A stretch of 64,000 nt of DNA. It comes from Candidatus Goldiibacteriota bacterium (GTDB lineage Bacteria; Oederibacteriota; PGYV01; DSYL01). The stretch is from NCBI GenBank assembly GCA_018000835.1, contig JAGNJD010000001.1, forward strand, positions 137,889-201,888. The letters are read 5' to 3'. The translations under genes and the position numbers were made by a program. Of this stretch, positions 7,882-60,497 are shown piece after piece; positions within the stretch are counted from its first letter, which is position 1, and each line of letters begins with the position of its first letter. The notes under the pieces are model-generated. The model was not told where the DNA came from. It saw only the letters and a program-made list of their open reading frames with translations, and did no database searches.

Positions 7882-9006
7882 ATGAAACCTTTAATTAAAT
7901 GGGCTGGTGGGAAATCAAGCGAAATTATACACGTAGAAGAAATGATACCTGAATTTAAGAAGTATATAGAACCATTTTTTGGTGGTGGTGCTCTATATTT
8001 TGATTTGGAACCTGACAACGCAGTAATTAACGATATCTCTGACGAACTAATTAGTTTTTATAAAATGATTAAGGACAGTTCTTTAAGGGAAGCGTTCAAA
8101 GAAGAATTGTATAAGTATGTTGAGGCGTGGGAAAAAATAGACGTGTATCTGGAAGAGTTTGGAGACGCAATACTTCAACAATATACAAAATACAAGAAAG
8201 ACGACATTGACATTGACGAACTTGAAAAAGCAATAGGTAAATTGTTTAAGAATAAAATCGTTCCTTTCAATGGACTGTTTAAGAAGGATTTTTGCATAGA
8301 CCAGTCCAGTTTACTTGAAAAAATGGAAACTAATTTAATTTCTAAATTGGAACGAACAAAGGAAAAAGTTAATAAGAAGAATAGTTTCTCGGACTCGGAA
8401 ATATCTAAAAATATTGAGTCGGCATTACGTAGTGGTTTATATATGCACTTCCGCAGTATCTTTAATGAAGCCAAAAAGAAAACAATTAGTATCATAAATG
8501 CAAAGAAAATTGCTAATTGGTATTTTATCAGAGAGTTCTGCTATGGCGGTATGTTCAGATTTAATAGTAAAGGCGAATTCAATGTCCCTTATGGTGGTAT
8601 AGCATATAACAAAAAGGATTTACGTTCAAAAGTTGATTATTTGTTCTCTGACGAAATTAAAAACCTTTTATCAAACTCTAAAATATATAGCAAAGATTTT
8701 GAAACGCTTTTTAAGGATATAAATCCTACAAAGAATGATTTTATATTCCTTGACCCACCTTACGACTCTGAATTCAGTGAATATGAAGAAAATGCTTTTA
8801 CAAAATATGACCAAGAACGTTTGGCGAAGTTATTATATACGTGTAAGGCACAGTGGATTCTTGTTATCAAGGAAACTCCATTTATCAAAGGTCTATATAC
8901 TGGACACAAAGGTATAAAAATAAAAAAGTTTAGTAAATCATATCTTTTTAATATCAAAGAAAGAAACGAAAGAAAAGTTCTACACTTGATAATTCATAAT
9001 CTATGA
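7882..9006 (+). CDS. Dam-family (D12 class, alpha-type) N6-adenine DNA methyltransferase.
   Basis: N-terminus KWAGGKSSEI...EPFFGGGALYF matches Dam motif X/I (KWAGGK, F-G-G). DPPY motif IV is present (FLDPPYDSEF). A ~120-aa insertion lies between them, probably the target-recognition domain. Confidence 0.85.
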   Translation: MKPLIKWAGGKSSEIIHVEEMIPEFKKYIEPFFGGGALYFDLEPDNAVINDISDELISFYKMIKDSSLREAFKEELYKYVEAWEKIDVYLEEFGDAILQQYTKYKKDDIDIDELEKAIGKLFKNKIVPFNGLFKKDFCIDQSSLLEKMETNLISKLERTKEKVNKKNSFSDSEISKNIESALRSGLYMHFRSIFNEAKKKTISIINAKKIANWYFIREFCYGGMFRFNSKGEFNVPYGGIAYNKKDLRSKVDYLFSDEIKNLLSNSKIYSKDFETLFKDINPTKNDFIFLDPPYDSEFSEYEENAFTKYDQERLAKLLYTCKAQWILVIKETPFIKGLYTGHKGIKIKKFSKSYLFNIKERNERKVLHLIIHNL

Positions 9007-20264: not shown

Positions 20265-21365
20265 TTAAATATCTTTAACTTTTCCTTTATCAACAAGAAA
20301 ATATTTGTCAATCTTTATATTTTTTACGTTCTCTTTATTTGTGGTTGTTATTATTATCTGTTTAAAAATATTGAACATTTCACTTATAAAATATTTGTTT
20401 GCTTCATCCAGTTCAGAAGTAAAGTCATCAAGTAATACAATAGGATATACATTTATTTTTTCTTTAATATAAATACCCTCTGCGAGTTTCAATATTATAC
20501 ACGATAATCTTTGTTGTCCTTCTGATCCAAAATATTTTAAAGATTTATTATTTAATAAAATCTCAATATCATCCCTATGAGGACCAATTAATGTTGATGT
20601 TCTATAAACTTCTTCATTAAAATATTTTTCAAAAAATGCTTCAAAATATCTATTTATTTCTATTTGTTCAATATTATCAAAGTTTTTTTGTTTATATTTT
20701 AATTTAATTACTATGTTTTTCTTAGTAAAATTATTATTTATTATTTCATTAATCCTTTCTATTGCATTTATTCTTTTATTAATTATTATTTCAGAATAAT
20801 TCTTTAATTGTAGGTTCCATATATCTATATCTTTTTTATTTGATCTATGTTCTTTTATTGATTTTAGTACATAATTTCTTTGGCAAACTATTTTATTATA
20901 TTTAGTTATTAGCATATAATATTCTTTATCAGTACTAATTAATATATTATCTATAAATTTTCTTCTTAGCAATGGTTCTCCGCTGATCATATAAATATGT
21001 TCTGGAGAAAAAAGGACTAATGGTATTTTTCCTATTAAATCAGATAATTTTCTTATATGTTTATTATTTTCAGTAATAATCCTTCTATTTGTTACATTAT
21101 TATATTCAATTTTAAAATTTTTGTTTATACCGTTTGTGTATTCCTGAACAACTTCTATCCTAAAATAATTGTTATTTTCATTTACTAAATATTTATCATT
21201 ACTACACCTAAATGATTTTCCTGTTGAGATATAGTAAATTGCTTCAATAATATTTGTTTTGCCAGAACTATTTTCCCCATGAAATAGATTAGTATCTTTA
21301 TTTAAGTCAATTGATAAATAATTATAGTTCCTAAAATTTTCTAATTTTATCTTTGAAATATACAA
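20265..21365 (-). CDS. recF: DNA replication and repair protein RecF.
   Basis: MYISKIKLENFRNY...FHGENSSGKTNIIEAIYY (Walker A). Also carries the ABC signature SEGQQR and Walker B LLDDFTSELD. Confidence 0.85.
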   Translation of the reverse strand: MYISKIKLENFRNYNYLSIDLNKDTNLFHGENSSGKTNIIEAIYYISTGKSFRCSNDKYLVNENNNYFRIEVVQEYTNGINKNFKIEYNNVTNRRIITENNKHIRKLSDLIGKIPLVLFSPEHIYMISGEPLLRRKFIDNILISTDKEYYMLITKYNKIVCQRNYVLKSIKEHRSNKKDIDIWNLQLKNYSEIIINKRINAIERINEIINNNFTKKNIVIKLKYKQKNFDNIEQIEINRYFEAFFEKYFNEEVYRTSTLIGPHRDDIEILLNNKSLKYFGSEGQQRLSCIILKLAEGIYIKEKINVYPIVLLDDFTSELDEANKYFISEMFNIFKQIIITTTNKENVKNIKIDKYFLVDKGKVKDI

Positions 21366-32228: not shown

Positions 32229-34413
32229 TAATACCGTTGCCCCGGTCAGAAAACAAAACGATGATAACAGTGCAATTGAACATAACAACGCAGGTGTTTA
32301 TTATTATTCAAAAGGAATGTATCAGGAAGCAATTGAAGAATTCAAAAAAGCGTTAAGCATAAATCCATCCTACGTTCAGGCTCAGGCAAACCTGAAAGCT
32401 GTAAATAAACAAACGGGAATATACGACAGAGCCATACTTGCATATAAAAAAGTCCTGCAAATGAGGTCGGATGACCCCGATGCTTTTTTTAATCTGGGAC
32501 ATGCACTAACCTATACCGGTGAATATAAAGAAGCCATAAAATATCTCACAAAAACACTTGAGTTGAATCCAGAGCACATAATTGCACAGAATCTGCTTGG
32601 AATAATTTATAAAAATACGGGAGAAATTGACAGGGCAGAGCAGGTTTTCAGGGAAGCCTTAAAAAAATACCCTAATTTTGTAGAACTAAATAATAACCTG
32701 GGGGAAACTCTTTATAAAAAAGGTTTGTATGAAGAAGCAGAAAGTTACCTGAAACAGGCAATAAAATTAAACAAAGAATATGCCATTGCTTATTACAACC
32801 TTGGTTTTGTATACGGAGAACTAGGCAGGAATGAAGAAGCAAATGCATGCTACAACAGGGCAATTGAATTAAATCCTTCTTTTATAAAATCAAATAAAAG
32901 TTTAATAATTGACTATCATGAAACAGCCGGCGTAAAACGTGAAGCAGAAATTGAAAACCTGAGCGATGACAGAAAAGCAGAGGCATTTTATCATCTTGCC
33001 AGCGTTTACAAAATGAAAGGATATATTGACGACGCAATTACGCAGATAAAAAGAGCAATAACTTTAAATACGAAAAATCCAAATTATTACAATTTTTTTG
33101 GCGAGTTATTGATAAAAAAAGGCATGGTAAAAGATGCCGTTGAAATCTTCAAACAAACCATAAAAATTGAACCATCTTTCTTTGAAGCAAAATTAAACAT
33201 AGCGGTTGCATACAGGGAAATGAAAGAATTTGACAGGGCAAGAGAAGTCATTAAAACAATCAAAGAAGAAAATCCGGAATTCACAAGGGATGACCTGCAT
33301 CTTGGAATAATAGATTATAAGGAAGAAAAAATAGAAGAAGCCATTGAAAAGTTTATGTCACAATTAAAAAAAGAACCTTATGACGACGAATCTCATTATT
33401 ACCTGGGGCTCTGTTTTTACAAAAAAAAGGGGTATGACATGGCTATTACGGCGCTTCGCAGGGCAATTGAGCTTACTCCGGCTTACATTAAAAAACCGGA
33501 AGTAAACCTTTATCTCGGGCTCGTTCTTACGGACAAAAACAGATATGACGAAGCAATCGTTGAGTACCAAAAGGTTCTATCCGTGCAGCCGGATAATGCA
33601 GTTGCACACAACAGCATGGGGGTTGCTTATAAAAATCTCGGCAATCTTGACAGAGCAATAGATGAATACAAAAAAGCAGTTTTAATAGACAAAAATTATT
33701 ATAAGGCCTATAACAACCTTGGAGTTGCTTATTACAAAAAAAATTTTTTTGATGAAGCAGAAAAATATTTCAAAAAAGCACTGGAAATCGAGCCCGGCTA
33801 CGAAGTTGCCAGAAAAAACCTTGAATCCGCACAAAAAAAAGACGTAATTTTTAAAGAAACCATTGACAGATTGCAGGAAAAAATAAAGGAAAAACCGGAT
33901 GAACCTTCATTTTATTATGACCTTGCAAACGCATACAGAAACACTGGACATTTAAAAGACGCTATTGTAAAATATAAAAAAGTAATTGAATTGCAACCCG
34001 AAAACGTTGATGCCTGTAATAATCTGGGTATGGTTTACATGGAAGACGGGAATTATGACGAAGCAATAAAGGTCTTTATAAATGTCCTTTCAAAGGATTC
34101 AAAAAATTCCAGAGCACATTTATTGCTCGCAGATGCTTATTGCAAAAAAGAATGGTGGGATGAAGCAGACATAGAATACCATAAAGCCCTTGAATTAAAC
34201 AACGACCTTGAAGAAGTATTTTTCAAACTTGGAGAAGTATACAGACAAAAATCATGGTGGGATGAGGCAATTGAAATGTGGACAAAATATCTGGATAGAA
34301 ACGATGGCTCTGAAATGGCAAGACAGGCACAGGAAAACATAAGAATGATTGAACTGTGGAAAAGGGAATTTCTGATTTCGCCTTCCCAGAGCAATCGCAA
34401 AATTATTAAGTAA
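32221..34413 (+). CDS. Large TPR repeat protein (730 aa).
   Basis: More than 15 TPR units; start overlaps the upstream gene stop. Confidence 0.7.
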   Translation: MSDNTVAPVRKQNDDNSAIEHNNAGVYYYSKGMYQEAIEEFKKALSINPSYVQAQANLKAVNKQTGIYDRAILAYKKVLQMRSDDPDAFFNLGHALTYTGEYKEAIKYLTKTLELNPEHIIAQNLLGIIYKNTGEIDRAEQVFREALKKYPNFVELNNNLGETLYKKGLYEEAESYLKQAIKLNKEYAIAYYNLGFVYGELGRNEEANACYNRAIELNPSFIKSNKSLIIDYHETAGVKREAEIENLSDDRKAEAFYHLASVYKMKGYIDDAITQIKRAITLNTKNPNYYNFFGELLIKKGMVKDAVEIFKQTIKIEPSFFEAKLNIAVAYREMKEFDRAREVIKTIKEENPEFTRDDLHLGIIDYKEEKIEEAIEKFMSQLKKEPYDDESHYYLGLCFYKKKGYDMAITALRRAIELTPAYIKKPEVNLYLGLVLTDKNRYDEAIVEYQKVLSVQPDNAVAHNSMGVAYKNLGNLDRAIDEYKKAVLIDKNYYKAYNNLGVAYYKKNFFDEAEKYFKKALEIEPGYEVARKNLESAQKKDVIFKETIDRLQEKIKEKPDEPSFYYDLANAYRNTGHLKDAIVKYKKVIELQPENVDACNNLGMVYMEDGNYDEAIKVFINVLSKDSKNSRAHLLLADAYCKKEWWDEADIEYHKALELNNDLEEVFFKLGEVYRQKSWWDEAIEMWTKYLDRNDGSEMARQAQENIRMIELWKREFLISPSQSNRKIIK

Positions 34414-47997: not shown

Positions 47998-48666
47998 ATG
48001 AATCCAAAATACAAAAAATTTCTTTTCTGGATTTTTATATTCGGCGTTGCCTTTGGTTTCATTGAAGCATCGGTCGTGGTTTATCTGAGGCAGCTTTATT
48101 ATCCCGGTAATTTTTCCTTTCCCATAAAATTAATTTCGGACAAAACCATGCTTGTTGAATTTTTTCGTGAACTTGCCACTCTGATTCTCATATTTTCTGC
48201 CTCTTACGTTGCAGGCAGAACAAAAATGGAGAGATTTGGTTTTTTTATGTATATATTCGGAATCTGGGACATATTTTATTACGTATTTTTAAAAATCATT
48301 TTAAACTGGCCAGCCTCCATACTTGATTACGACCTTTTATTTTTCATACCGGTTGCATGGGTAGGTCCTGTGCTTGCACCTGTCATTATTTCCATATTAT
48401 TAATAACAGCAGGAATAACCATAATTTATTTTGAAAACAACGATTATAAAATATACAATACAAAATTAACGTGGATGCTTGAAATTACAGGCGGCCTTGT
48501 CGTAATTGTTTCTTTTATTTTGTCAGTCGGCGACGTTTTAAATCAGACGTATCCAAAACACTTTTACTGGTGGTTTTTTTTCCTGGGCGTTTTGATTGCG
48601 CTTGTCCCTTTCATTTATTCCGTTTATAAAACACTCAAAAACCGGAAAAACAAAATCTCACAATAA
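47998..48666 (+). CDS. Polytopic membrane protein, function unknown.
   Basis: About six predicted TM helices; good RBS (AGGAGG) upstream. Confidence 0.4.
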   Translation: MNPKYKKFLFWIFIFGVAFGFIEASVVVYLRQLYYPGNFSFPIKLISDKTMLVEFFRELATLILIFSASYVAGRTKMERFGFFMYIFGIWDIFYYVFLKIILNWPASILDYDLLFFIPVAWVGPVLAPVIISILLITAGITIIYFENNDYKIYNTKLTWMLEITGGLVVIVSFILSVGDVLNQTYPKHFYWWFFFLGVLIALVPFIYSVYKTLKNRKNKISQ

Positions 48667-48972
48667 TTAGCAGTTCAACTTTACAAAACCGTGATTATTA
48701 TCCATATTATATACCTATTTAACGTCGTAGTTTTCAATATTCAATAAGCAATCAACAACCCGCAATTTTTACATCTGAAACTTGCCACTGTCTTTATCTG
48801 CCATTTGACATCCGACACTTTGCATTTTTCAATATCAATCTTTCCATTCTAATTGTCTAATTGATGTCTACCTAATTGAAAACCTCATAAAAACATATAA
48901 ATTGAAAGGAAATATATAAGGCATATATTTCTCCGGACAGTGTTAATTAAATATATTAATTTTAAAAAACAC

Positions 48973-49001
48973 TTGACAAATTATGACAAATCTTGTATAA
49001 T
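48973..49001 (+). promoter_or_regulatory. Consensus sigma70-type promoter TTGACA-N17-TATAAT, embedded in an array of (A/T)TGACA direct repeats.
   Basis: TTGACA 48973-48978, 17-nt spacer, TATAAT 48996-49001. TGACA repeats sit at 48974, 48985, 49005, 49014 and 49025, roughly at helical-turn spacing. Confidence 0.6.
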
Positions 49002-49038
49002 TATGACAGAAATTGACAATATATGACAATTTATGAAA

Positions 49039-49059
49039 TTGTTCCTTTAGAAAGAACAA
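49039..49059 (+). promoter_or_regulatory. Inverted repeat TTGTTCC-N8-GAACAA immediately upstream of the RBS of the lexA-like gene; candidate operator.
   Basis: Perfect 6-bp arms TTGTTC/GAACAA lie between the predicted TSS and the GGAGG at 49070. The half-sites are GTTC/GAAC but in the reverse arrangement to a Cheo box. Confidence 0.4.
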
Positions 49060-49082
49060 AATAACATTCAGGAGGTAAGAAA

Positions 49083-49691
49083 ATGAATGAAGAAATAATG
49101 ACCGTAGAAGATGTTGCTTCTTATCTCAAGTTAGATGTGAGAACTATATATAGGAGGTTAAAGGCAAATGAAATACCGGCGTTTAAAATAGGCGGGCAAT
49201 GGCGTTTTAAAAAGCAGGACATTGACCTGTGGATAAAAAAACGTTATCCGGAAAATAAGCAGGACGTCGTTTCTGTTACAGAGGACGGAATAACGGGCAG
49301 TGAGCAGACAATAAACGTTCCTGTCGTGGGTAAGGTTTCGTGTGGCAGCCCGATGTTCGCAGTTGAAAACATTGAAACCACCATTTCTGTATCAACAAAG
49401 ATTGCAAAGCCGCCTTATAAATATTTTTTATTAAAAGCAAAAGGCGACTCTATGAATCTGGCAGGAATAAATGACGGTAATCTGGTTCTCGTCCGTCAGC
49501 AGCAGACCGCCAGGAATAAAGACATAGTAGTTGCACTTATTGACGACGAAGCAACAATAAAGGAATATAACGTTGCCCGGGATAAAATTATTTTAAAACC
49601 GCTATCTTCAAATCCGGCACACAAGCCGATAATTTTAACAAATGATTTTATTGTCCAGGGTGTTGTCGTATCAACAATCCCTGAAATTTAA
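49083..49691 (+). CDS. LexA-like repressor: HTH_17 (excisionase/MerR-type) DNA-binding domain fused to an S24 (LexA/UmuD) peptidase domain.
   Basis: N-terminus [37 protein letters not shown] (HTH_17). C-terminus [13 protein letters not shown]...[19 protein letters not shown]...IKEYN carries the Ser/Lys dyad context. It sits directly upstream of recA. Confidence 0.65.
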
Positions 49692-49702
49692 GGAGGTATA
49701 AA

Positions 49703-50791
49703 ATGAGTGGTGAAAAGAAAAAGGCATTGGAACTTGCAATCTCACAGATTGAAAAGGAGTTTGGAAAAGGCGCTATCATGAAACTCGGAAAAGCACCGAC
49801 GGCAAGAATTGAGTCAATTACAACAGGGGCACTATCGCTTGACCTTGCATTGGGCGGAGGCGGCGTGCCGCGCGGAAGAGTCATTGAAATTTATGGGCCT
49901 GAGTCATCAGGCAAATCCACACTTGCACTTAACATCATTGCCCAGTGTCAGAAAGCAGGCGGCTCTGCTGCATACGTTGACGCAGAAAACGCTCTTGATG
50001 CCGAGTATGCAAAAAAAATCGGAGTGAATACCGACGAGTTGCTCGTTTCCCAGCCGGATACCGGTGAGCAGGGGCTTGAAATCGTTGAAACCCTTGTGAG
50101 AAGCGGAGCAGTTGATATCATTGTCATTGACTCCGTTGCAGCGCTCGTGCCCAAAGCAGAAATAGAAGGCGATATGGGCGACCAGCATATGGGTTTGCAG
50201 GCACGGTTAATGTCACAGGCACTTAGAAAACTTACAAGCATCATCAGTAAATCAAGAACCGTGGTTATATTTATTAATCAGATAAGGGAAAAAATAGGCG
50301 TGATGTTTGGAAATCCTGAGACGACTCCCGGCGGCAGGGCATTAAAATTTTATGCATCCGTCAGAATAGACATAAGAAGAGTAGAAACAATAAAAGAAGG
50401 AGAAATGATAGTCGGTAACAGGGTAAAGGCAAAAATAGTAAAAAATAAAGTTGCTCCTCCTTTCAGGGAAGCATTGTTTGACATAATTTTTGGCAAAGGT
50501 ATTTTGCGGGAAACAGCAGCACTTGATGCAGCGGTTGATTACGGCATCGTTGAAAAAAGCGGCACCTGGTTTACGTATGGCAGCGGCAAACTCGGTCAGG
50601 GCAGGGATTCGGCAACCAAATTTCTTTCCGATAATCCAAAGATACTGGAAGAAATAGAACAAAAAACGAGAGATAAATTCTTCGGAAAAGAAAAAGAAGA
50701 AGAGAAAAAGGAAGAAAAGGAAATCAACGAAGATAAAAAATCAAATGTCATAAATGCAAAGGATATAAAAGCAAAGGTAATAAATCCGTAA
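49703..50791 (+). CDS. recA: Recombinase RecA.
   Basis: Begins [25 protein letters not shown] and carries Walker [10 protein letters not shown]. Loops L1/L2 are conserved; acidic, low-complexity C-terminal tail. Confidence 0.95.
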
Positions 50792-50974: not shown

Positions 50975-50990
50975 GTTAACAATTGTTAAT
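50975..50990 (+). promoter_or_regulatory. Near-perfect palindrome GTTAACAATTGTTAAT upstream of the HTH antitoxin gene; candidate autoregulatory operator.
   Basis: 16-bp dyad downstream of a TTGACA (50936-50941) and ~30 bp upstream of the ATG at 51022. Confidence 0.45.
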
Positions 50991-51021
50991 TTTAATAAAT
51001 AAATTAACACAAAGGATAAAA

Positions 51022-51279
51022 ATGCAAATTAAAAATTATTATTCATTACAAGAAATTGCAAAATTGCTTGGCATAAGCAGGATATCGGTATACAAAAAAG
51101 TAAAAAAGGGGGAAATTGCGGCAGAGAGGATTGGAAGATCTTATGCTGTACCAAAAAAAGAAATTTCGTATATAACCGGTGAAAAACTTCGTAAGGAGGA
51201 TATGAAACAGATTGATAATGCCGTAAAAAAAATAATTGATAACTATGCAGAAGTTTTAATAAAACTTGGTAAAGAATGA
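51022..51279 (+). CDS. HTH_17-type DNA-binding protein, putative antitoxin of the downstream Doc toxin.
   Basis: MQIKNYYSLQEIAKLLGISRISVYKKVKKGEIAAERIGRSYAV; its stop overlaps the start of the doc-like gene (ATGA). Confidence 0.6.
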   Translation: MQIKNYYSLQEIAKLLGISRISVYKKVKKGEIAAERIGRSYAVPKKEISYITGEKLRKEDMKQIDNAVKKIIDNYAEVLIKLGKE

Positions 51280-51689
51280 AAATAAAAATTCTTACCATAA
51301 AAGAAGTTGAGCATATTGCTTTTAGACTGGCAAAAGAATTAATGAAATATAACGAATCCATTCCTGATTATACTACAAGATATCCCAACATACTTGAAAG
51401 TTGTATTGCAACTCCTTTTTCAGGATATTATAACGGGTTAATACAAGAATCGGCTATATTATTTTATCTCATTATAAAAAATCATCCTTTTCAGAATGGT
51501 AATAAAAGAATTGCAATTACAATCCTGTTTACGTTTCTTTATAAAAATAAAAAATGGTTAAAAGTCGGCTTAGATGAATTGTACGATTTTACAATGTGGA
51601 TTGCAAACAGTCCTGCAAAATCAAAAAATGAAGTTGTTAAAGCAATAGAAGAATTTGTAAAAAATAAAATAGTGAATTTGAACCTGTAA
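51276..51689 (+). CDS. doc: Doc (death-on-curing)/Fic-family toxin.
   Basis: Fic/Doc motif HPFQNGNKRIAITIL (HxFx(D/N)GNKR); 137 aa; translationally coupled to the upstream HTH gene. Confidence 0.75.
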   Translation: MKIKILTIKEVEHIAFRLAKELMKYNESIPDYTTRYPNILESCIATPFSGYYNGLIQESAILFYLIIKNHPFQNGNKRIAITILFTFLYKNKKWLKVGLDELYDFTMWIANSPAKSKNEVVKAIEEFVKNKIVNLNL

Positions 51690-56893: not shown

Positions 56894-58000
56894 ATGAAAA
56901 TTAAAACGAAGAGGAATGAAATTTTAAATCCGCTTTTGGTAGCACAGTATTTTATTTCACCAACGTCAACTTTACCACTTTTATCAAACATATTGTTTGA
57001 CGTTAAAGAAGATGGAATTTACATTTCTGCAACGGATATGGACATGAGCGTTTGCATTAAATCTAACGTTGATAAAATAGAAGAAACGGGCAAAACTACC
57101 ATTCCCAAAAAGATTATTTCACTTTTAAAAGAAGCCCCAGATTCAGAAATAAAAATAGAATCGGATAAAAATGACAGCATAAAAATTCAATGGAAGGGTG
57201 GATATTGTAAAATTCCAGGTTTGCCAGCAGAGGATTTCCCTTTATTAAAAATTGAAAACAATAAATTATCAAAAGTAAAATTACCACAAAAAATATTAAA
57301 GGAAATAATAAAATATACTTCATTTGCAGCATTAAAAGATTCAACAAAAAGAAATTTGAACGGCGTTTTCATTAAATTTGAAGGCGATAAAATTGAAGCA
57401 GTATCTACGGATGCCCATCGTCTATCATATTACAAAATAACGACAAAAATAGACATAAAAACGCCCTATGAATACATTATTCCTTTAAAGACCATTAATG
57501 AAATTGCAAAAATAATAGAGGATAAAGAAGGCAAAGATATAGAAATAAATTTGTATGAAAAATTGGTTGAATTTAAAATGGATAACATAAACATAATAAC
57601 AAGGGTAATAGATGAAAATTTTCCAAACTATGACCAGGTAATTCCAAAAGATTTCAATACAAAAGGAGTAGTAAAAAAAGCCGACTTTGAGAGTGCTTTA
57701 AAAAGAACGTCAATGATATTAAGCGACAGGACAAGAATAATAACGTTAAAGTTTGATAAAGATAAAATGTTTGTTACTGCTTCCGCACAGGATGAGGGGG
57801 AAGCTTACGAAGAAATAGACATAAAATATGATGCTACTCCCATAGATATTACTTTTAATTCCAATTATCTACTGGATGTTTTAAAAAGCATTGAAACGGA
57901 TGAAATTGAAATTAAGTTAAATAGTTCCACCGATCCAGGCGTTATTTCGTTTGTTGGAAACAATGATTTTGTTTACGTTGTAATGCCAATCAGAAAATAA
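56894..58000 (+). CDS. dnaN: DNA polymerase III beta sliding clamp.
   Basis: 368 aa with three-domain organisation and conserved N-terminal blocks ([25 protein letters not shown]); it sits between dnaA and gyrA. Confidence 0.9.
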
Positions 58001-58013
58001 ATTTCTAAAAGGG

Positions 58014-60497
58014 ATGGATATGACTGAAAATAATAACGAAAAAATAAAAACAGGAAAGTTATTACAAACTCCCATAGAAGAGGAGATGAAAACTTCTTAT
58101 CTTGATTACTCCATGAGTGTCATTGTAGGAAGAGCTTTGCCGGATGTTCGCGATGGATTAAAACCGGTTCAGAGAAGGATAATATATTCCATGAATATCA
58201 TGGGTTTACATTATACAAAGCCATATAGAAAATCAGCAAAAATAGTCGGTGAAGTTATGGGTAATTTTCATCCCCACGGAGATACGGCTATATATGATAC
58301 CATGGTGAGAATGGCCCAGAATTTTACTTTTAGGATGCCTCTTGTTCAGGGACAGGGTAACTTTGGATCAATTGACGGTGACCCGCCTGCCGCAATGCGT
58401 TATACGGAAGCAAGATTAAGCAAAATAGCTGAGGAATTAACAACTGATATTGAAAAAGATACAGTGGATTTTGTTCCAAATTATGATGAGACAACGAAAG
58501 AGCCGGTTGTTTTTCCAGTTTCTTTTCCTCATCTGCTGGTAAACGGTTCTTCCGGCATTGCCGTAGGAATGGCAACAAACATACCGCCACACAATCTTGG
58601 TGAAATTATAGATGCGGTTATATATAGAATAGATAATATGGATGATAAAATATCTGTTGATGATTTAATGAAAATTGTAAAAGGCCCGGATTTCCCGACT
58701 GGTGCATATATCATTGGAAAAACAGGCATTAAACAGGCATATTCAACCGGCAGAGGGTCGATAACGTTGCAGGCAAAAGTAAAAATAGAAGAAACCCCAA
58801 AAGGCAAGAAGCAGATTATCATAACGGAATTACCATACATGGTTAATAAAGCACAATTACTTGAAAACATTGCAGATCTTGTCCGTAATAAAAAAATTGA
58901 CGGAATTACGGATATAAGGGATGAATCAGACAAAGACGGCATACGGGCGGTAATTGAAATCGGCAGAAATGAAAATCCGGATATCATTTTAAATCAATTA
59001 TATAAACATACTTCTTTAAGAAGCAGTTTTGGAATAATTCTGCTGGCATTAGTTGATGGAAAACCACGGATATTGAGTTTGCTTGATATCATCGATGATT
59101 TTATTAATTACAGAAAAGAAATCATAATAAGAAGAACGAAGTTTGACCTTGATAAGGCCGAGAAAAGGGCGCATATTCTTGAAGGTCTTAAAATTGCCTT
59201 AAAATATCTTGACAGGATTATAAAATTAATAAGAAATTCAAAATCAGTTGAAGATGCAAAGACTGGTTTAATGGAAAGTTTTAAACTTACCGACGTTCAG
59301 GCTCAGGCTATCCTTGACATGAAATTACAGCAGTTAACTGCCCTTGAAATTGAAAGAATAGAAAAAGAATACAAAGATTTAATAAAACTTATAGAAGAAC
59401 TAAAATTTCTCCTTGCCAGCGAGAAAAAAATTTATAATCTTATGAAAGATGAATTACAGGAGATAAAAAACAAATATGCAGACCCAAGGAGGACGGAAAT
59501 AATCAACAGGGAAAAAGAAATTTCCATTGAGGATCTTATAAAGGAAGAAGATATGGTTGTTACGATAACCCATACCGGTTATATTAAAAGGACGCCGGTC
59601 TCCGTATATAAGGCACAACGCAGGGGCGGCAGAGGCATAATTGCAGTAACGACCAATGAGGAAGATTTTGTTCAGGACCTTTTTGTATCAAACACACATG
59701 ATTATCTGATGTTTTTTACAAACAAGGGAAGATGTTACTGGTTGAAGGTATATGAAATACCAGAAGCGGGCAGGCAGAACAGAGGCAAGGCAATAGTTAA
59801 CCTTATAAAACTTGAAGAAGGCGAAAGTATTTCTTCTTATGTTTCCGTGAAGGACTTTGTGGAAGATAAATTTATTATTATGGTAACTGAAAACGGAACG
59901 GTAAAAAGAAGTAATCTGTCACTTTTTTCAAAACCAAGGGCAGGAGGCATTATTGCCATAAATTTAAGCAAAGGGGATAATCTTATTGAAACGAAAATTG
60001 CGGAAGAAAAGGCAGAAATTTTTATAGCAACGTCAGAAGGCATGGCGATACGTTCAATGGTTAAAAATTTCCGTGAAATTGGAAGAACCGGAATGGGAGT
60101 AAGGGGAATAAAATTAGGCAAAAATGATAAAGTTGTAAGCATGACAATTTTACATTCCGGCGACAAAGATAAAACGCTTCTTTCCGTTACTGAAAAAGGT
60201 TTTGGAAAAAGGACAAAAGTATCTGAATACAGATTGCAGGCAAGAGGCGGTAAAGGAATTATAAATATTAAAGTTACTGAAAAAACAGGGAACGTTGTAG
60301 CAATTAAACTTGTTTCAGACGAAGATGAACTAATGATAATAACTACAAAAGGCACTCTTATAAGAACAAAGATAAAAGATATTAAAACGACAGGCAGGAA
60401 TACTCAGGGTGTCAGATTGATAAAATTAAAAGAAGGCGAAAAAGTAAGCGCGGTTGCAAGAATTGCAGAAGAAGACGAAGATGAAAAGGAAAAATAG
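58014..60497 (+). CDS. gyrA: DNA gyrase subunit A.
   Basis: Begins [28 protein letters not shown]; active-site Tyr context AMRYTEARL; C-terminal beta-pinwheel repeats and an acidic tail. Confidence 0.9.

Follow-up and report, generated by a model that had tools for sequence, protein, structure and literature searches.

Which DNA sites does a LexA-type repressor read when its DNA-binding half is not that of LexA? The question is raised by the lexA-recA locus in a 64,000-nucleotide stretch of contig JAGNJD010000001.1 from a Candidatus Goldiibacteriota bacterium (hereafter, the window), where the repressor gene is preceded by a consensus promoter and by three kinds of repeated sequence: phased (A/T)TGACA direct repeats, a TTGTTCC-N8-GAACAA dyad and three CTAATTG repeats. 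A preliminary description of this DNA had named the dyad or the TGACA repeats as operator candidates; in the comparison of orthologous loci presented here the repeats survived and the dyad did not. Our analysis suggests that the locus is likely to be a self-repressed lexA-recA promoter, whose repressor joins a true LexA C-terminal half to a head of the excisionase/BldC type and whose operator consists of phased direct repeats.

To the repressor, Pfam searches assigned an HTH_17 domain (PF12728, residues 6-54, E = 1.5e-16) and a Peptidase_S24 domain (PF00717, residues 80-196, E = 9e-30), and detected neither LexA_DNA_bind (PF01726) nor HTH_3. A database entry from a Candidatus Goldbacteria metagenome-assembled genome (MAG), under the name 'repressor LexA', matches the protein with 100% identity. 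The NCBI lexA model TIGR00498 matches residues 72-199 only, with 115.2 bits at a cutoff of 110.95. Likewise, residues 62-199 align with residues 58-196 of Escherichia coli LexA, and the LexA chains in the PDB align only from residue 62 onwards. Ser123 and Lys160 align with S119 and K156 of the E. coli protein, and Cys87-Gly88 with A84-G85. The cleavage-site Cys and Gly as well as Ser123 and Lys160 are invariant across 33 aligned relatives, including the canonical Goldbacteria LexAs, to whose C-terminal domains that of the repressor is 67-72% identical. These results agree with the preliminary description, which had read the protein as an S24 LexA-type repressor carrying HTH_17 instead of the LexA winged helix and had made this depend on a catalytic Ser/Lys pair, found here in the expected alignment.

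An AlphaFold model of residues 1-61 (predicted local distance difference test score 84.5) has the order beta-alpha-alpha-beta-beta-alpha, with strands at residues 5-7, 33-36 and 39-43 and helices at residues 8-15, 19-28 and 44-54. Its top Foldseek matches are the BldC-DNA complexes 6AMA and 6AMK (root-mean-square deviation 1.9 Å, template modeling score 0.65-0.75), followed by RacA, the RdfS excisionase and phage Xis, and no LexA chain is among the 50 structural matches listed. BldC is also the only sequence relative of the N-terminal domain in the PDB, with a weak match (E = 0.09), and the domain scores 52.6 bits against the TIGR01764 'excise' model. The modeled head thus resembles a MerR-like winged-helix fold of the BldC/Xis type. 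All array-associated proteins share a conserved RT(I/V)YR(R/M)LK helix.

Upstream of the gene, the perfect sigma70 promoter TTGACA-17-TATAAT described earlier at 48973-49001 was confirmed, and it is the sole 12/12 promoter match within 48600-49150. The five (A/T)TGACA direct repeats that had been described around it are present as well. Their spacing, however, is exactly 10 bp and not ~10-11 bp, with a single 20-bp gap that is occupied by the -10 region (Table 1). GACA is found in five of six consecutive 10-bp slots of the lexA promoter compared with a maximum of two elsewhere in the window. When the window was simulated 300 times with a first-order Markov model, 288 runs peaked at two slots, four runs at three and eight runs at one, and none reached four or more. 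Units 4-6 reach the top three-unit position-weight-matrix score in the window (30.4, against a shuffle maximum of 16.6). Since the array overlaps a 12/12 consensus promoter, it shows the classic arrangement for repression. The units of the window can further be paired into three 20-bp super-repeats (48972-49031; CTTGACAAATTATGACAAAT and two copies at 75-80% identity), with prefixes that alternate between TTG and ATG; the other orthologs do not show such alternation.

Orthologous loci were gathered by looking up identical proteins and by scanning species-representative genomes, and the resulting footprint set comprises 12 distinct HTH_17-lexA promoters with proteins 56-85% identical to that of the window. 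All 12 promoters share one layout, in which the phased positions of GACA are the same. From the -35 hexamer onwards, ten can be aligned with no gap (CTTGACAAAt.AtGACAAaT.ttgTATA.TTATGaCAaaa.atGACAa.a...GACAa); L171 and L172 are the two promoters added to these ten. The GACA of unit 2 is kept in 11 of the 12, with L091 as the exception, and the ttgTATA core around the -10 hexamer is conserved in the aligned promoters. Information content is full or nearly so in the GACA columns, whereas the intervening spacers vary; apart from the array and the promoter core, no conserved motif was found in the orthologous promoters. Invariant GACA columns separated by free spacers are the classic phylogenetic footprint of a protein-binding array, and the phased (A/T)TGACA repeats are very likely the new binding sites of the swapped head. 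The earlier expectation that the operator would not be a classical SOS or Cheo box holds, as the conserved sites are phased direct repeats.

The specificity of the array was assessed on both strands of 175 fetched sources (1.65 Mb) by scoring GACA in at least four of six phased slots. All such arrays lay on the coding strand ahead of HTH_17-S24 lexA genes, with one exception: in L155 (8557-8610, minus strand), GC-rich TGTCGCGACA-type repeats lie ~1.4 kb from a Hyphomicrobium lexA gene and are unrelated to the A/T-rich array. Runs of at least three consecutive phased GACA were restricted to HTH_17-S24 lexA promoters and the distant fusion L016, and the array is present in every main-clade HTH_17-lexA promoter and in L016. 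When metagenome contigs were searched with the N-terminal alignment, two of the 80 loci listed were S24 fusions and the rest standalone HTH_17 genes. Among these 80 loci, the sole run of at least three phased GACA lies upstream of the fusion L016; the ~78 with standalone genes of 60-70 codons have no array.

An alternative explanation is that the array is bound by another factor, such as a nucleoid or architectural protein or a second regulator, or that it is a feature of promoter strength, and that the HTH_17-LexA reads something else. Binding of this protein to the array is a prediction from sequence, unit 1 is simply the -35 hexamer, and A/T-rich phased repeats can serve as bending or UP-like elements. 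However, the arrays track the HTH_17 head and nothing else, being absent from syntenic canonical-LexA promoters with the same core. Moreover, units downstream of the -10 hexamer cannot act as -35 or UP elements, and the orthologous promoters offer no other conserved motif. We consider this explanation unlikely.

If the HTH_17 heads read the array, repression and its release may be envisaged as follows. The operator would be made of (A/T)TGACA(A/G) direct repeats one helical turn (10 bp) apart, with two units overlapping the -35 hexamer and the spacer, one degenerate unit on the -10 hexamer and three units over the transcription start. From about -37 to about +23, a single face of the DNA would carry the heads in a head-to-tail row. 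The C-terminal domains would pair the heads, giving a cooperative hold by two to three dimers per promoter, and the bound heads would block RNA polymerase at the -35 hexamer and the start site. Upon DNA damage, as the conserved residues suggest, RecA filaments would trigger self-cleavage at Cys87-Gly88 via Ser123/Lys160. Cleavage would part the heads from the dimer, so that cooperativity would be lost and lexA-recA derepressed. Neither the dyad nor the CTAATTG repeats would play a part in this mechanism.

Several points weigh against the proposal of a phased-repeat operator for the swapped head, which rests wholly on comparative sequence analysis. Within the window and the fetched flanks, no promoter other than the repressor's own has the array. 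A position-weight-matrix scan detected no second array in the 64-kb window or in the flanks of orthologous loci, and its best off-locus match (33218-33247, inside a tetratricopeptide repeat gene) scored 16.5, about the level of the highest shuffle (16.6). Good units differ in number between loci, from 1+3 in L091 to 2+4 in L087, and their number is odd at times, which is ill-suited to a simple picture of one dimer per pair of units; in three loci, unit 4 reads GTCA. In addition, the analogy to BldC covers the binding mode and not the recognized sequence (AATT-N4-C at ~9 bp vs. GACA at 10 bp), and the match to BldC in the PDB is weak. The variable and odd unit numbers together with GTCA at unit 4 point away from a strict dimer-per-pair arrangement and towards a flexible assembly like that of BldC.

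Table 1. Positions of features in the window and, where a locus is named, in related loci.
Feature	Position	Strand	Remarks
-35 hexamer TTGACA	48973..48978	+	also candidate operator unit 1 (acTTGACAAa, 48971-48980); invariant in 12 orthologous promoters
Candidate operator unit 2, ATGACA	48983..48988	+	within promoter spacer, 10 bp past unit 1
-10 hexamer TATAAT	48996..49001	+	surrounding cTTGTATAa (48991-49000) is a degenerate unit in the third 10-bp slot
Candidate operator units 4-6 (ttATGACAga, aaTTGACAat, atATGACAat)	49001..49030	+	span predicted transcription start to about +22
WTGACA occurrences	48973, 48983, 49003, 49013, 49023	+
Weak seventh unit, ATGAAA	49033
Predicted transcription start	about 49008
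Dyad TTGTTCCTT-N3-AAAGAACAA (TTGTTCC-N8-GAACAA)	49039..49059	+	in 5' leader; 8/9 pairs; unique in window
Three CTAATTG direct repeats	48849, 48857, 48872 (48849..48878)	+	not conserved; possibly a local duplication
Ribosome-binding site AGGAGG	49070..49075	+	7 nt before ATG; motif ttCAGGAGGtaag conserved in close relatives
LexA-type repressor gene (apparently domain-swapped), 202 residues	49083..49691	+	HTH_17 residues 6-54 (49098-49244); S24 residues 80-196
Predicted cleavage site Cys87-Gly88	49341-49346	+	by alignment
Ser123	49449-51	+	by alignment
Lys160	49560-62	+	by alignment
recA	49703..50791	+	11-nt gap after repressor stop codon; no array or promoter of its own
dnaA	55091-56476		downstream of lexA-recA
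dnaN	56894-58000		downstream of lexA-recA
gyrA	58014-60497		downstream of lexA-recA
orfX, L087	4629-4916
orfX, L088	3497-3784
orfX, L086	5161-5445
orfX, L169	4637-4912
orfX, L170	4658-4942
Canonical-type promoter, L095	5470-5690
Canonical-type promoter, L096	1960-2030
Canonical-type promoter, L169	3840-4003
Canonical-type promoter, L170	3840-4003

How such a repressor and its sites may have arisen can be judged from sister lineages, since at four Goldbacteria loci (L095, L096, L169, and L170) the lexA-orfX-recA-AsmA/DUF748 order is the same but the LexA is of the canonical winged-helix type. Here, orfX denotes a conserved open reading frame (ORF) of 91-95 codons without Pfam family that lies between lexA and recA in both LexA types and is 41-57% identical between them; the window and its closest relatives lack it and have lexA next to recA. 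Among the sister genomes of the canonical type are JAKQNO01, CAYTNY01 and HGW-Goldbacteria-1. The canonical-type promoters have the TTGACA...TTGTATAmT core in common with the swapped type but carry GTATAC boxes, in the layout GTATA-N8-TTGACA-N5-GTATAC-N5-GTATACT, and have no GACA array; the ATG follows only about 7-9 nt after the -10 hexamer. In this phylum, GTATAC is the probable box of canonical LexA, and the canonical lexA mRNA is probably leaderless. Swapped-type promoters still have the TTGTATA of the -10 region. The same locus and the same core promoter combined with a different head and different boxes suggest that the DNA-binding domain and the operator were exchanged together and in place.

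A neighbor-joining tree of the C-terminal domain, which was not bootstrapped, places the HTH_17-type and the canonical Goldbacteria LexAs in one clade of 46 tips, the branching order of which leaves the number and the direction of swaps undecided; P0032 and P0036/P0039 fall outside. Both LexA types were not found together in any assembly among the species representatives, which is weak evidence because of MAG incompleteness. The full scenario is that the LexA head was replaced in place by an unrelated BldC/Xis-type fold while the promoter was rewritten from GTATAC to a phased array, yielding a filament-like, damage-cleavable repressor; we regard it as evenly balanced between right and wrong. 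In this scenario, the new head would probably have been captured from one of the ubiquitous HTH_17 genes of 60-70 codons.

Two further observations concern these relatives. In L086 (4620-7334) and L005 (627-4106), ORF6N genes interrupt the lexA-recA pair and recur behind recA, where a radical-SAM gene comes next in this sub-lineage; ORF6N occurs in KilA/antirepressor-type proteins. Three loci (L093, L094, and L096) are labeled uncultured Spirochaetia bacterium, yet their lexA loci group with Goldbacteria, and the labels look unreliable.

The protein might also bind the array and regulate its own gene, yet not be a damage-inducible SOS repressor, as would be the case for a co-opted repressor of a mobile element or defense island that has a private target and lacks RecA-dependent cleavage. 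Self-regulation is indeed the only regulation seen in the window and the orthologous flanks. The N-terminal domain scores 70.6 bits against the HTH model of the antiphage MADS system, under that model's cutoff of 80, distant HTH_17-S24 fusions adjoin a reverse transcriptase (L173) or sit away from recA (L016), and the region after recA carries toxin-antitoxin or restriction-modification cassettes. On the other hand, the gene fills the orthologous lexA slot ahead of recA in a chromosomal setting near dnaA, and its C-terminal domain is ~70% identical to canonical LexAs, with the cleavage site and the Ser/Lys pair unchanged in all 33 sequences. No second LexA or S24 gene was detected in the window by tblastn with the C-terminal domain and the canonical N-terminal domain; nor was a second LexA seen in six representative genomes of this type, although the latter is weak evidence. 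Taken together, a role outside the SOS response appears improbable.

The dyad could be regarded as the operator if it were bound by a symmetric dimer, as with classical LexA, and if the TGACA repeats were incidental. It is a good palindrome that occurs once in the window, it sits between the promoter and the ribosome-binding site, and its GAAC/GTTC half-sites recall the LexA boxes of Firmicutes and Verrucomicrobia (PMC4951493). However, none of the other 11 orthologous promoters has the dyad; it is lacking in L001, L004, L086-L094 and L172. In L171, the closest relative, with 85% protein identity and the same RtcB-membrane protein-lexA-recA synteny as the window, a 10-bp gap deletes the right arm, whereas the repeats are almost identical. 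Moreover, the leader segment that bears the dyad varies in length from about 0 to about 80 bp across relatives. On this comparison, the dyad appears private to this genome and outside the conserved system, and we rejected it as an operator, a role that is very unlikely.

Although the dyad exists as previously described, it ends 10 nt upstream of the ribosome-binding site and does not abut it. Similarly, the three CTAATTG repeats exist, but not at the limits reported before (48851-48885; see Table 1 for their true starts). CTAATTG occurs in 14 copies window-wide, which equals the chance expectation, and three copies in 30 bp form a local cluster; the CTAATTG region of the window does not align at all with L171. 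The repeats were rejected as a regulatory site on account of their lack of conservation and their chance-level count in the window. Since the dyad and the CTAATTG repeats are both absent even from the closest relative, neither is an operator candidate. An RNA element in the leader was also rejected: the fold of the leader RNA is not significant (z = -1.2), and the leader has no Rfam match and no terminator-like site.

The name 'iteron' used in the preliminary description fits as a description of tandem, phased direct repeats, but an identity as iterons of a plasmid- or phage-type replication origin, to which this superficial likeness and a dnaA gene 6 kb away might point, can practically be dismissed and was rejected, since the units are 10 bp and not 17-22 bp long and are not DnaA boxes, the chromosomal locus has no replication-initiator (rep) gene or origin context, and in all orthologs, whatever the neighbors, the repeats are part of a consensus promoter immediately ahead of lexA.

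In the window, the repressor gene is flanked by genes for RtcB and a membrane protein on one side and by recA and thiC on the other, and recA is predicted to be co-transcribed with it as a lexA-recA operon. The dnaA-dnaN-gyrA genes follow 6-11 kb downstream, without a rep gene among the neighbors; their closeness places the operon ~6 kb from the likely chromosomal origin. Directly after recA (50983-51689), genes for an HTH_17 protein (98 residues) and a Fic/DOC protein (137 residues) overlap by 4 nt in a toxin-antitoxin-like manner. In L001 and L172, genes for a restriction enzyme (RE_R_Pab1) and an N6 methyltransferase stand between recA and thiC instead. As the contents of the recA-thiC interval differ among the window, L001 and L172, it is a variable island. 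Elsewhere in the window, a gene for a D12-class N6-adenine DNA methyltransferase is found at 7882-9006, and a gene for a RecF-like SMC_N protein (20265-21365, minus strand) has no GACA array upstream.

Proteins of this architecture are rare. Of the best 150 matches in a library of 1.84 billion cluster representatives, about 8 extend over both domains, compared with 18,405 S24 relatives in the library as a whole. The full-length HTH_17-S24 type was found in only six GTDB species-representative genomes, namely JAOAIN01, JAOAAI01, CALHNI01, DSBP01, CAYGHG01 and CAZHOD01. Of the distant fusions, L016 sits after mnmE. Another, P0036 (51% identity), is found in L173 and also in L174; it is followed by ~340 nt of non-coding DNA, an ORF of 94 codons and a reverse transcriptase (RVT_1), and the whole (L173, 940-3107) resembles a retron- or defense-like module controlled by an S24 repressor. 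The promoter in L173 keeps TATAATTAAGACAA and has no phased array. In the literature, we found nothing that links HTH_17, excisionase or BldC-type heads with LexA, or Goldbacteria with LexA, while non-canonical SOS repressors with CI-like heads have been described (PMC8565304, PMC13148647).

With canonical LexA of E. coli and Bacillus subtilis (TIGR00498, PF01726 plus PF00717), the protein shares the S24 domain, the cleavage site and the Ser/Lys dyad, the position upstream of recA, an operator (here a candidate one) over its own promoter and, in sister Goldbacteria, the orthologous locus. It differs in that HTH_17 replaces the winged helix and that five to seven direct repeats are found instead of one or two palindromes. 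A precedent for direct repeats is the alphaproteobacterial LexA, which binds GTTC-N7-GTTC (PMC4951493): there, a dimer reads two direct half-sites about one turn apart (11 bp, compared with 10 bp here). That protein, however, keeps the canonical winged helix and uses two half-sites, whereas another fold and arrays of variable length are found here. BldC of Streptomyces binds variable numbers of direct repeats head-to-tail on one DNA face (PMC5859096), which matches the anatomy of the array, and its complexes are the best structural match of the N-terminal domain. Unlike the 202-residue protein, in which the HTH_17 head is fused to an S24 domain, BldC is a standalone protein of 68 residues without a dimerization or signal-sensing domain, as are BldC-like and excisionase binders in standing alone, and its identity to the N-terminal domain is only ~24%.

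The 'non-canonical LexA' of Bacteroidetes (PMC8565304), FddR of Francisella (PMC13148647), UmuDAb and HdiR likewise combine an autocleaving S24 domain with heads other than that of LexA in SOS-type regulation. These repressors have all-helical heads of the CI/XRE type, bind palindromes and are thought to derive from whole phage repressors. In contrast, the protein described here has a bona fide LexA C-terminal domain, a winged-helix head with beta strands and direct repeats as its candidate sites, and only the head appears to have been exchanged. A further difference concerns plasmid iterons, which are likewise tandem and phased, whereas the 10-bp units of the array lie within a chromosomal promoter.

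The LexA/SOS system is a textbook case for the co-evolution of a regulator and its binding motif. In the changes known, either the motif drifts while the winged helix stays the same or LexA as a whole gives way to a phage-type, CI-like repressor. The present case differs in that the sensor and dimerization half of LexA is retained and only the DNA-reading head is apparently swapped for another fold, with the states before and after the change both surviving in sister lineages at the same locus and with the same core promoter. This makes the rewriting of an operator after a domain swap, and the recapture of the old regulon, accessible to experiment. There are practical consequences as well. Annotation pipelines name the protein 'LexA' from a match to the C-terminal half that is barely above the cutoff, and searching swapped-type genomes for a palindromic SOS motif would be unsuccessful. 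The suggested modular design, a direct-repeat-reading head joined to a RecA-cleavable dimerizer, may be of use for synthetic damage-inducible switches. If our interpretation is correct, a damage-cleavable head-to-tail binding mode would be new among SOS repressors, for none of which it has been described, and the paired lineages would represent a natural experiment showing how a network can survive the exchange of its master regulator and of the sites.

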